A DNA stretch of 64,000 nucleotides. Origin: Escherichia coli. Lineage in GTDB: Bacteria > Pseudomonadota > Gammaproteobacteria > Enterobacterales > Enterobacteriaceae. Shown here piece after piece: positions 12,497 to 21,075 of this stretch (within the stretch, counting starts at the first letter, position 1; each line of letters begins with the position of its first letter). Under the pieces are notes generated by a model. That model did not search any database, had not been told where the DNA came from, and saw nothing but the letters and a program-made list of their open reading frames with translations. The stretch lies in NCBI RefSeq assembly GCF_050920415.1, contig NZ_CP169309.1, one strand, 5' to 3'. The position numbers and the translations under genes were made by a program.

Positions 12497-13441
12497 TTAG
12501 CGTTTGCAAATTGAGACTAATTGCTCTTCCATCCACTGATGGCCTTTGTCGCGTCCGGCAGCTTCATGCCAGGAGAGATAACAGGTTCTGCTGTTGTGTT
12601 TTAATGGCAGCGGTAATACCTGTAACTCTAAAGATTCAGCGAACTCTTCAGCCAGCCAACGCGGCGCAATAGCGACCAGATGCGTTTGCGATACCACGCT
12701 CAGTACGCTCATCATTGCCATGCCCTGATACGCGATACTGGCTTGCTTGTCTACCGTGTCATACCACGGTTGACTAAATGACGCGAAACGATCGAGCGAA
12801 ACTGCCGCATGTTGTTCGTTATAAACATCATGTTTCAGTAACGGGCCTTTAATTGTTGGATGATTTTTGCTGGCTACCAGCACCATTTCATCTTTAAATA
12901 ATGGCACACTGGTAAATTCAGGACGATGGAAGTCTTCATAACTAATCACAAACTCCGTTTCCTGATAACGCAGCTGATGTTCAGTGTTCTGATTTAATGA
13001 AGACTTGAACATAACATGTATATTTGGCGCAGTTTGCTCAATGTGATTATATATCTGCGAGGTCAGAATGCTGTCTAACGGGCTGCAAACACAAAGATGA
13101 AATACACGTTCACTGCTCGCGGGTTCAAAACCTGAACCTGGCAATTCATTTTGCACTAATTGCAATGCCTGACGAACTGAACCAAAAAGTTGAAATGCGC
13201 GAGCAGTCGGTTGAATGCCACGGCCATAACGAACAAAAAGCTCGTCATTAAACATCACCTTCAGGCGTGCAACCGCGTTACTGACCGCAGGTTGCGACAT
13301 CCCCAGAACATGAGCGGCACGGGTGATGTTTTGCTCCTGCATCACGGCATCGAAAACGGTTAATAAGTTGAGATCGACCATGCGTAGCTGTGGTTTGCTT
13401 AACTCCGCCGTCTCTGGTTGATCTGTTTGTACCTCTGGCAT
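12497..13441 (-). CDS. leuO: LysR-family transcriptional regulator LeuO
   Basis: 314-aa protein from [27 protein letters not shown]; track ORF is longer, true start ATG at 13441. Confidence 0.92.
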
Positions 13442-14097
13442 ACTTAACTCCACTGTCACACTTAACTCCCTTTCCCTTATTGGAATGCAGAGAAATAATC
13501 CTCGAGAATATGATTTATCATGCATATAAAATAAGAAAAAGGAAAATGAGAAAAATTAGGAAAACATAAAGATACGGGTTCTTATAAAAACAGAACCCAT
13601 TGCCAAGTAAAGAGTCATTTACCGCAGCATAATAATCCATAATGTTTTTGTTGCGAAAACAATCTAATCATAACTACCGCGAATACTCAATCATCCACAA
13701 AATGGATTAAATGTGCTTTTTAATAATTAATTTATATGTTTAATGCATTAATTCTTAACATTAATCGAACAATAATATTCACCAAATGAATATCAAAAAA
13801 TTAGCAAAATATATAATTCAATACAAATCATCAAGATAGGTTTTGTACGCGTGCATTTTATCCCCCTTTTCCTCGTTGATTAGATGCAAAAATTTATTCT
13901 GAAATATGTCAACCGATGAAAAGCGTCGGTGGTTAAGCAGAAATTAATATCGCTTGTTTTAACCACCGCAGCACAATTAGCTAATTTGACGAATGCAGAA
14001 CTCACTCTGGCGGAATGTTTTTATTGCGTCAGGGTTGACATCCGTTTTGGTATCCAGTAACTCTAAAAGCATATCGTATTCATCTGGAGCTGATTTA

Positions 14098-14184
14098 ATG
14101 ACTCACATCGTTCGCTTTATCGGTCTACTACTACTAAACGCATCTTCTTTGCGCGGTAGACGAGTGAGCGGCATTCAGCATTAA
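14098..14184 (+). CDS. leuL: leu operon leader peptide LeuL
   Basis: 28 codons [28 protein letters not shown] with four consecutive CTA Leu codons, directly upstream of the attenuator hairpin. Confidence 0.9.
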
Positions 14185-14212
14185 GCCAGCACGCAGTCAA
14201 ACAAAAAACCCG

Positions 14213-14243
14213 CGCCATTGCGCGGGTTTTTTTATGCCCGAAG
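14213..14243 (+). terminator. leu attenuator (rho-independent terminator)
   Basis: aaaaaacccgcgccattgcgcgggttttttt: GC stem plus T-tract between leuL and leuA. Confidence 0.85.
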
Positions 14244-14276
14244 CGAGGCGCTCAAAAAGAGACAAGGACCCAAACC

Positions 14277-16939
<2,663 letters not shown>

Positions 16940-16941
16940 TC

Positions 16942-18958
<2,017 letters not shown>

Positions 18959-18990
18959 TTTGTAAACCGTCCGGCACTCAATCGCCAAAA

Positions 18991-19218
18991 AGAAAAAAGC
19001 CAGCAGATAATCACTGCTGGCGTGGCGATTAACACCAATACTCAGTCACACATGATGTCCGCAAATCAGTAGTCAGAATGACTCCCCTCCCACTGCATCA
19101 GCTCTTCAAGCATGGTTAATCGTTGTGGGACGCTTAACCAACGCAACCAGCACAACTTCGCTGTCGCGGTAAAATAGTGCTGATAAAACTGACGCATGGG
19201 GCACCTCCTTGCTTCATC
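18991..19218 (-). ncRNA. sgrS: Small RNA SgrS (glucose-phosphate stress sRNA)
   Basis: Minus strand begins GATGAAGCAAGGAGG, contains the SgrT ORF and the seed-like stretch GTGTGACTGAGTATTGGTGT, ends in hairpin ccagcagtgattatctgctgg plus U-run; ends approximate. Confidence 0.85.
19066..19197 (-). CDS. sgrT: SgrT small protein encoded within SgrS
   Basis: 43 codons MRQFYQHYFTATAKLCWLRWLSVPQRLTMLEELMQWEGSHSDY with AGGAGG SD upstream. Confidence 0.85.
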   Translation of the reverse strand: MRQFYQHYFTATAKLCWLRWLSVPQRLTMLEELMQWEGSHSDY

Positions 19219-19285
19219 GTTAGGAATTATTGACTTAATATAGGGAAAATAAAATTGCTGTCTTTTGCGCAGGAGTTCCCCTTTT

Positions 19286-20941
19286 ATGCCATCCGCTCGT
19301 CTGCAACAACAGTTCATCCGCCTGTGGCAATGCTGCGAGGGTAAATCGCAGGACACAACGCTCAACGAACTGGCAGCGTTATTGAGCTGCTCGCGTCGTC
19401 ATATGCGCACCCTGCTCAACACCATGCAGGATCGCGGCTGGCTGACGTGGGAAGCGGAAGTCGGGCGCGGTAAACGCTCGCGTCTGACATTCCTCTATAC
19501 CGGGCTGGCGCTTCAGCAACAGCGGGCGGAAGACCTGCTGGAGCAGGATCGTATCGACCAACTAGTGCAGTTGGTTGGCGACAAAGCGGCTGTGCGGCAA
19601 ATGCTGGTTTCTCATCTGGGCCGCAGCTTCCGCCAGGGGCGGCACATCCTGCGCGTGCTCTACTATCGTCCGTTGCGTAATCTGCTACCTGGCAGCGCAT
19701 TGCGCCGTTCTGAAACCCATATCGCCCGGCAAATCTTCAGTTCGCTAACGCGCATAAATGAGGAAAATGGGGAACTGGAAGCAGACATCGCCCACCACTG
19801 GCAGCAAATATCACCGCTTCACTGGCGCTTCTTTTTGCGTCCAGGAGTCCATTTTCATCATGGTCGTGAACTGGAAATGGACGATGTGATCGCCTCTTTA
19901 AAACGAATCAATACGCTGCCACTCTATTCACATATTGCTGAAATTGTGTCGCCGACACCCTGGACGTTAGATATCCATCTCACGCAACCAGACCGCTGGT
20001 TGCCGTTACTGTTGGGACAAGTTCCGGCGATGATCCTGCCACGAGAATGGGAAACCCTCAGTAACTTTGCCAGCCATCCCATCGGCACCGGTCCGTATGC
20101 GGTGATCCGCAACAGCACCAATCAACTGAAAATTCAGGCATTCGATGACTTCTTCGGTTACCGGGCATTAATCGACGAAGTTAACGTCTGGGTTCTGCCG
20201 GAAATTGCCGACGAGCCAGCCGGAGGGCTGATGCTAAAAGGTCCACAGGGCGAGGAAAAAGAGATTGAAAGTCGGCTGGAAGAAGGTTGCTACTATTTAC
20301 TGTTCGACAGCCGCACCCATCGTGGGGCGAATCAGCAAGTCAGGGACTGGGTAAGTTATGTGCTTTCTCCAACTAATCTGGTCTATTTCGCCGAGGAACA
20401 ATACCAGCAACTCTGGTTTCCAGCCTACGGGCTGTTGCCGCGCTGGCATCATGCCCACCCGGCGCAGTGCGAAAAACCTGCCGGGCTGGAAAGCCTCACC
20501 CTGACCTTTTATCAGGATCATATTGAGCATCGAGTGATTGCCGGGATCATGCAGCAGATTCTGGCAAGTTATCAGGTCACACTGAAAATCAAAGAGATCA
20601 GCTATGATCAGTGGCACGAAGGAGAGATCGAGAGCGATATCTGGCTTAACAGCGCCAACTTTACGCTGCCGCTGGATTTTTCGCTGTTCGCGCATTTGTG
20701 CGAAGTGCCGCTGCTACAACACTGTATTCCGATCGACTGGCAAGCCGACACCGCCCGCTGGCGCAATGGCGAAATGAATCTGGCGAACTGGTGCCAGCAA
20801 CTGGTCGCCAGTAAAGCAATGGTGCCACTTATCCACCACTGGCTGATCATTCAGGGGCAACGCAGTATGCGCGGTCTGCGTATGAACACCCTCGGCTGGT
20901 TCGATTTTAAATCAGCGTGGTTTGCGCCGCCGGATCCATGA
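19286..20941 (+). CDS. sgrR: Transcriptional regulator SgrR (HTH plus solute-binding-like domain)
   Basis: 551-aa protein from [19 protein letters not shown], divergent from sgrS. Confidence 0.93.
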
Positions 20942-20979
20942 TTGCTGGTTGATAACAAAATCACTACACTAACGCCGTT

Positions 20980-21075
20980 CTCAACGGGGTGCCACGCTGC
21001 CGCGTGCGCTGAGAAAATACCCGTCGAACCTGATCCGGATAACGCCGGCGAAGGGATTTGAGGCTCCTTCTCAAG
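20980..21075 (+). promoter_or_regulatory. TPP riboswitch (THI element) in the thiBPQ leader
   Basis: Contains ggggtgcc...ctgagaaaatacccgtcgaacctgatccggataacgccggcgaaggga, matching conserved THI-box features, directly upstream of thiB. Confidence 0.8.

Follow-up and report, generated by a model that had tools for sequence, protein, structure and literature searches.

The element in front of leuA in the window, by which we mean the whole 64,000-nucleotide stretch of Escherichia coli DNA analysed here, is almost certainly the leuL leader and attenuator of the E. coli leuLABCD operon, that is, a ribosome-mediated attenuator that senses charged tRNA-Leu. This attenuator is of an already known, textbook kind, characterised since 1979-1981, and it is intact and ordinary in this strain; no observation spoke against this explanation. 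The original prediction had described an intact leucine attenuation arrangement, and this was borne out by matches to Rfam and NCBIfam families over their thresholds and by the leuABCD genes downstream. The present analysis provides the sequence parts of the element, its three alternative pairings, their dependence in silico on the position of the ribosome, and their conservation and covariation.

Identity of the leader and comparison with K-12

The Rfam family RF00512 (Leu_leader) was found to match the leader RNA over the entire model (1-148 of 148) at positions 14084-14233 on the plus strand. The score is 147.5 bits (E = 3e-34), with the gathering score of the family at 50, and no other Rfam family passed its threshold at the leader. 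A span that begins at 14098, as first proposed, leaves out the 5' part of the leader RNA, where the Rfam match starts at 14084. The leader peptide was observed to match NCBIfam NF007397 (leu operon leader peptide, equivalog) with 80.9 bits against a cutoff of 59, over residues 1-28 of 28.

The element shares with leuL and the leu attenuator of E. coli K-12 (b0075, NC_000913.3 83622-83708) its peptide, the four CUA codons, the sequences of the protector, antiterminator and terminator, the fold and the flanking genes. The K-12 leu attenuator was reportedly described by Wessler and Calvo in 1981. Alignment to K-12 leuL and its attenuator, which had been proposed as a check of the original prediction, gave an identical LeuL peptide and 164 matching nucleotides among the 166 of the leader (98.8% identity). 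At 14077, in the 5' UTR, the window has T where K-12 has C, and at 14175 the Ile26 codon reads ATT instead of ATC, a synonymous change. Both positions are unpaired. A further difference lies at 14255 in the spacer between the leader and leuA, and no difference from K-12 touches a paired base. The predicted leader fold and its energy (-55.7 kcal/mol) are the same as those of K-12, and we infer that the attenuator of this strain behaves like that of K-12.

The leader was found to be more conserved with respect to K-12 than the surrounding 6 kb (98.8% versus 95.4% identity), which fits purifying selection acting on the leader. Of 5426 complete E. coli genomes searched with Megablast, 5399 contain it as a single copy, with leuL and leuA annotated. 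Over 311 bp, two records show 100% identity to the window, and for one of them, NZ_CP169399.1, the 100% identity extends over 6 kb. The leu region of the window (13000-19000), at 95.4% identity to K-12, is rather divergent for E. coli. We noticed that the roughly 150-nt leader of the Escherichia albertii type strain is identical to that of the window despite a regional identity of 92.1%. An assignment of the window to E. albertii on the strength of this identical leader was rejected, as the 6 kb are 100% identical to E. coli MFDS1022581 and 95.4% identical to K-12 and only 92.1% identical to E. albertii.

Leader ORF, promoter and operon

The leuL ORF extends over 14098-14184 on the plus strand with 28 codons and a TAA stop codon (14182-14184), and its translation yields exactly the 28-residue peptide that had been noted originally. 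Its Shine-Dalgarno sequence, GGAG at 14086-14089, was read from the sequence 8 nt before the ATG at 14098 and falls within the Rfam Leu_leader match. Codons 10-13 of the ORF form a run of four tandem CUA leucine control codons (14125-14136). The earlier description of four adjacent leucine codons, all of the rare CTA type, is thus accurate, since among the 1871 leucine codons of 46 long ORFs in the window only 56 (3.0%) are CTA. From this leucine codon usage, the probability that all four codons of the run are CTA is about 8e-7. The 12-mer CTACTACTACTA (four copies of CTA) occurs a single time in the 64 kb of the window with both strands counted. A 63-aa ORF on the plus strand (13993-14184), which is an in-frame 5' extension of leuL, was rejected as a gene because its start is located upstream of the promoter.

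The leu promoter is placed by inference at 14035-14063 on the plus strand, with a -35 hexamer TTGACA (14035-14040), a 17-nt spacer and a -10 hexamer TAACTC (14058-14063). Both hexamers are the same as in K-12, and the spacer differs at one base, 14049, which is G in the window and T in K-12. By the K-12 annotation, in which transcription starts 27 nt ahead of the ATG, the transcript start is presumably near 14071. A scan of the plus strand with consensus models for promoters and terminators reported neither the leu promoter nor the attenuator. The promoter was missed because its -10 hexamer ends in C, and the attenuator was probably missed since the A-U extension of its stem uses up the T-run; both omissions are a limitation of the consensus scan and not evidence of absence.

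As had been predicted, leuA lies downstream of the attenuator hairpin (14277-15848, plus strand; 1047 bits to its NCBIfam equivalog) and starts 43 nt after the T-run. It is followed on the same strand by leuB (15848-16939), leuC (16942-18342) and leuD (18353-18958), each identified by an NCBIfam equivalog match and by the annotation of NZ_CP169399.1. The genes leuO and ilvI are located upstream on the opposite strand, and with leuABCD directly downstream this is the K-12 arrangement.

Several other features of the neighbourhood were also observed. The intergenic region between leuO and leuL (13600-13900) is very AT-rich, with 24-27% G+C in 200-nt windows compared to about 50-58% in the flanking genes. 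In the ORF list leuO spans 12497-13525 on the minus strand and has 342 aa compared to the 314 aa annotated, and this extra length, like the 63-aa extension of leuL, is an artefact of taking the first start codon. The setA gene, which in K-12 is found between sgrS and leuD (77621-78799), is absent here between leuD, which ends at 18958, and SgrS, which begins at 18992. The polymorphism is a common one, as about 2143 of the 5426 complete genomes of E. coli have leuD and sgrS joined without setA. Over its last 153 nt, leuD shows only 88.9% identity to K-12. Further downstream are the SgrS sRNA (18992-19218, minus strand; Rfam, 228.9 bits), which contains sgrT, the gene of the SgrR regulator (19265-20941, plus strand; NCBIfam, 1122 bits) and a TPP riboswitch identified by Rfam upstream of thiB (20975-21074, plus strand). 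SgrS and the TPP riboswitch are the only other Rfam families over threshold in the 64 kb window.

Alternative secondary structures of the leader

Three structures that share nucleotides were found in the leader RNA, all on the plus strand. The intrinsic terminator (the attenuator) occupies 14203-14233 in the MFE and centroid folds, where 14203-14215 pair with 14220-14232. Its G+C core is formed by the 5' arm CCCGCGC (14209-14215) and the 3' arm GCGCGGG (14220-14226), which enclose the loop CATT (14216-14219), and A-U pairs extend this core to 14203-14232 to give a stem of 13 bp with 7 G-C pairs. The stem is followed by a run of seven T residues (14227-14233), and the hairpin folded alone has an energy of -19.6 kcal/mol. 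The hairpin and T-run originally placed at 14213-14243 are therefore real, but the coordinates were off by a few bases at both ends, with the stem located at 14203-14232 and the T-run at 14227-14233. These coordinates are all that had to be corrected in the original prediction.

The second structure is the protector hairpin (14123-14161), in which the MFE and centroid folds pair 14123-14129 with 14155-14161 and 14139-14142 with 14150-14153. In the fold of the untranslated leader, the region of the leucine codons is thereby paired with the antiterminator strand and GCGCGG is sequestered. The protector folded alone has an energy of -9.2 kcal/mol. It is surrounded in the untranslated leader by outer stems (14084-14196), where 14084-14117 pair with 14162-14196 according to the folds and the Rfam consensus structure. 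The third structure is the antiterminator, or preemptor, formed between the 5' strand GCGCGG (14151-14156) and the 3' strand CCGCGC (14210-14215). The latter strand is also part of the terminator 5' arm, and this segment is shared in a mutually exclusive manner.

The 184-nt leader folds with an energy of -58.3 kcal/mol compared to -40.7 +/- 3.9 kcal/mol for shuffled sequences (z = -4.5), and none of 200 shuffles was found to be as stable. The antiterminator helix comprises only 6 bp, and its complementarity is modestly significant in the window alone (z = -2.4), where 4 of 100 shuffles were as good.

We also noticed that the attenuator hairpin (14203-14233) is bordered by six A residues on one side and seven T residues on the other, which gives it the form of a terminator on either strand. 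On the minus strand, the terminator part of the Rfam Leu_leader model matches at 33.7 bits, and no convergent gene uses the hairpin as a minus-strand terminator here.

Dependence of the switch on ribosome position

Partition-function folds were calculated for 14071-14219, a segment that stops short of the terminator 3' arm, and the nucleotides under the ribosome were kept single-stranded. In the absence of a ribosome, the protector was found to form with a probability of 0.98 and the antiterminator with a probability of 0.00. When the A site of the ribosome was placed on Leu10, Leu11, Leu12 or Leu13, the protector fell to 0.00 in each case and the antiterminator rose to 0.80, 0.98, 0.18 and 0.55 respectively. 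The low value at Leu12 arises because the model allows pairing across the ribosome. For a ribosome at the stop codon, the protector was observed at 0.47 in its outer stem and 0.93 in its inner stem and the antiterminator at 0.06. Furthermore, in the RNA downstream of a CUA-stalled ribosome and without the terminator 3' arm, GCGCGG (14151-14156) pairs with CCGCGC (14210-14215) in the MFE structure. The MFE of this RNA is -19.9 kcal/mol with CCGCGC included, compared to -11.5 to -15.7 kcal/mol before CCGCGC becomes available.

The original prediction stood or fell with a potential for alternative pairing between the leader and the terminator stem. Such a pairing is present, and it depends on the ribosome as expected. 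Fold prediction, the other check that had been suggested, recovered both the antiterminator and the terminator, the former when the ribosome masks the CUA codons.

Equilibrium folds of the full-length leader with the masked ribosome gave a different picture, in that the antiterminator never appeared and the terminator had a probability of 1.00 in every ribosome scenario. The state in which the antiterminator is forced was found to be 13.5 kcal/mol less stable (-22.4 versus -35.9 kcal/mol). As the terminator always wins at equilibrium, the switch must be kinetic, and a kinetic decision is generally accepted for attenuators. It also follows that the antiterminator has to be tested on RNA whose transcription has not yet reached the 3' arm, because equilibrium folds of the full-length leader hide it.

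Conservation of the leader among leuA loci

Loci were gathered from species-representative genomes by means of a back-translated motif of 14 residues from the LeuA N-terminus, so that the leader itself was not used in the selection. This gave 120 loci, of which 110 had at least 250 nt before leuA and formed, together with the window, a set of 111 upstream regions. A short ORF with at least three consecutive leucine codons was found 100-290 nt before leuA in 95 of these regions, and each of the 95 ORFs is followed by a hairpin of the CCCGCGC...GCGCGGG type with a run of six to nine T residues. Leaders of this type were observed in Enterobacterales, Vibrionaceae, Alteromonadales (including Colwellia), Orbales and Pasteurellales. 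One candidate, from an actinomycete MAG (L010), was rejected as spurious; it has three consecutive leucines in a 12-aa ORF and lacks a complementary strand (z = -0.6), and the later counts refer to the other 94 leaders.

An alignment-free search for the strand most complementary to the terminator 5' arm placed it 9-16 nt after the leucine run in 90 of the 94 leaders, with a median z of -2.3 against dinucleotide shuffles. As an example of correlated changes, the arm CCCGUGC is matched by an upstream GCACGGG or GUACGGG in a gammaproteobacterial MAG (L112), Glaciecola and Psychromonas.

The 94 leaders were also aligned with MAFFT on sequence only. In this alignment the antiterminator columns are 86% paired in register, compared to 22-64% when the partner strand is slid by 1-3 columns. 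The antiterminator pair 111:206 was observed as G-C in 91 leaders and A-U in three and was unpaired in none. Covariation of the antiterminator rests on these three sequences at one pair and two at another, most of its pairs being nearly invariant. Little variation is to be expected in a strand that has two partners to fit, and it limits the covariation evidence for the antiterminator. Pairing in the two protector helices (helices 7 and 8) amounts to 87% and 93%, and changes on both sides of a pair are frequent. At 95:108, for instance, 59 leaders have A-U and 21 have G-C, and at 75:118, 48 have C-G and 23 have U-A. In the terminator core, pairing reaches 91.5%. The outer stems are less conserved outside the Enterobacteriaceae, with 28-61% of positions paired.

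The choice of control codon was observed to vary with the clade: 53 leaders, from Enterobacterales, mainly use CUA, and 35, from Vibrionaceae, Colwellia, Orbales and others, mainly use CUC. The leucine run has a length of three codons in 61 leaders, four in 28, five in four and six in one. Most leader peptides keep the residues 'RG', and most of those in Vibrionaceae end directly after them. As these residues are encoded by the antiterminator strand GCGCGG, their retention looks like a constraint on the RNA rather than on the peptide.

The control-codon run varies in copy number in nature. In E. coli STEC299 from Marmota (NZ_CP022279.1; locus L123, 128-217), leuL contains five consecutive CTA codons, an expansion of the 3-nt repeat, and this leader also carries a few substitutions in the outer stem.

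Proposed mechanism and published work on K-12

The pausing at the CUA codons, the drop in RNA, the leucine-specific response and the polymerase pause that enter the mechanism below are taken from published K-12 work. Transcription would start about 27 nt before leuL, and RNA polymerase would pause near 14165 once the protector has been made, until the translating ribosome catches up. When Leu-tRNA is plentiful, the ribosome would pass the four CUA codons towards the stop codon at 14182, and 14123-14142 would re-pair with 14150-14161 to restore the protector. With GCGCGG sequestered in this way, the terminator (14203-14232) and its seven T residues would form and transcription would end before leuA. 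When Leu-tRNA is scarce, the ribosome would stall on CUA codons 10-13 and cover the 5' half of the protector. This would free GCGCGG (14151-14156) for pairing with CCGCGC (14210-14215) as soon as the latter is made, so that the terminator 3' arm would be left without a partner and the polymerase would read into leuABCD. If the leader is not translated at all, the full protector would be expected and termination would be maximal.

The polymerase pause site is putatively located at 14165-14166 on the plus strand, with U at -1 (14165), G at +1 (14166) and G-10 at 14156. Supplementary file 2 of PMC9291695 gives the context of the K-12 leuL pause as ...GCGCGGTAGACGAGTG, and this published context is identical to positions 14117-14166 of the window, which suggests that polymerase would pause at U14165 here too. 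The leuL pause is enhanced by NusA (PMC9291695).

Ribosome profiling in K-12 has shown ribosome pausing at the four leuL CUA codons, a 29-fold fall in RNA density from leuL to leuA, and a smaller response of a reporter in which CUA was changed to UUA (PMC8384417). In a fusion of the LeuL 5'UTR to GFP under a constitutive promoter, leucine was found to repress expression and glycine was not (PMC2836559). In Salmonella, replacement of CUA by CUG lowers sensitivity, according to the account of Carter et al. 1986 given in PMC1183508, where the choice of the rare CUA codon is also discussed. Given the near-identity of the two leaders, read-through of the present one probably responds to tRNA-Leu charging as in K-12 (PMC8384417, PMC2836559).

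Alternative explanations

It is hardly credible that the hairpin and T-run only terminate transcription constitutively or insulate leuO and leuA from each other, with a Leu-rich ORF that is coincidental and without any sensing. The dominance of the terminator at equilibrium agrees with such a role, and the A-run and T-run that flank the hairpin, together with the minus-strand Rfam match of 33.7 bits, give it a generic bidirectional look. However, a coincidental ORF would have to account for four out of four rare CTA codons (P of about 8e-7) and for a Leu-run ORF before leuA in 95 of 111 loci that were chosen independently of the leader. The protector and antiterminator pairings also keep their position and covary, and both ribosome pausing and leucine-specific control have been published for the near-identical K-12 leader (PMC8384417, PMC2836559). 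Codon statistics, conservation and published regulation together exclude this explanation. It is also very improbable that the leader is intact and the operon is nevertheless controlled here mainly at initiation, through LeuO, the AT-rich upstream region or global regulators, with attenuation playing a minor part. This would agree with the divergent position of leuO upstream, the low G+C content of 24-27% over 13600-13900 and the single base of the promoter spacer that differs from K-12, but the -35 and -10 hexamers are unchanged. Furthermore, the LeuL fusion with a constitutive promoter is still leucine-responsive (PMC2836559), RNA drops 29-fold across the attenuator in K-12 (PMC8384417), and any control at initiation would be additional to attenuation and not a substitute for it.

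A third possibility, which we consider very unlikely though less so than the two above, is that a product of the leader, either the terminated RNA (about 160 nt) or LeuL itself (28 aa), also acts in trans, in the manner reported for rnTrpL and peTrpL of Sinorhizobium, for which PMC6614838 and PMC7298713 provide precedents. In K-12 the attenuated transcript is about 29-fold more abundant than leuA mRNA (PMC8384417), and the leader is more conserved with respect to K-12 than its surroundings, as given above. No support for a role in trans was found in this analysis, the three overlapping RNA pairings fully explain the conservation, and peptide residues outside the leucine run and 'RG' vary freely among genera. 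We give a similarly low chance to there being something new at this locus, whether such an action in trans or a tuning of the leucine set-point between lineages by the number of CTA repeats (four here, five in STEC299).

Relation to other attenuators

The leaders of Salmonella typhimurium and other Enterobacterales were observed to share the architecture of the present leader, its CUA control codons, the UGCGCGGU antiterminator strand and the CCCGCGC/GCGCGGG terminator. Their peptides differ outside the leucine run, and many genera have LLGLLL (two plus three leucines) in place of four in a row. According to PMC9291695 and PMC1183508, these are the leaders on which the model of protector, preemptor and terminator was defined (Gemmill et al. 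1979; Carter et al. 1986; Bartkus et al. 1991). Vibrio cholerae and the other non-enterobacterial gammaproteobacterial leaders likewise have a short Leu-run ORF followed by a terminator with a CCCGC core, the complement of which is located 15 nt after the leucine run, and the V. cholerae LeuL homologue shows leucine-specific repression and behaves like the E. coli LeuL fusion (PMC2836559). These leaders differ in their peptides, which have 16-24 aa and mostly end in SRG, and in their control codons, which are mainly CUC in the sampled Vibrionaceae. The strands of their antiterminator pair with an offset of one position (CGCGGG with CCCGC), and CCCGCAU is frequent as the terminator arm.

With the trp, his, phe, thr and ilv attenuators, the leu leader shares tandem codons for the end product, competing hairpins, an intrinsic terminator and a coupling polymerase pause, whereas the amino acid that is sensed differs. 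In leu the stop codon is located 26 nt past the antiterminator strand, and a ribosome at the leuL stop does not cover this strand because of that distance. In our folds, termination in leucine excess would depend on the protector re-forming behind the ribosome, which contrasts with the trp attenuator model. The T-box and protein-mediated leu and ilv attenuators of Firmicutes also choose between a terminator and an antiterminator according to the supply of amino acids, but they sense uncharged tRNA or a protein directly and have no translated leader peptide. No T-box-type match was found at the present leader in the Rfam search, where only Leu_leader was over threshold.

The locus in itself matters little, as it is a textbook attenuator present in essentially every E. 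coli genome. Our comparative set shows a three-way constraint on the protector, the antiterminator and the terminator across the sampled groups, which serves as an illustration only and agrees with published comparisons and experiments such as those on V. cholerae LeuL (PMC2836559).
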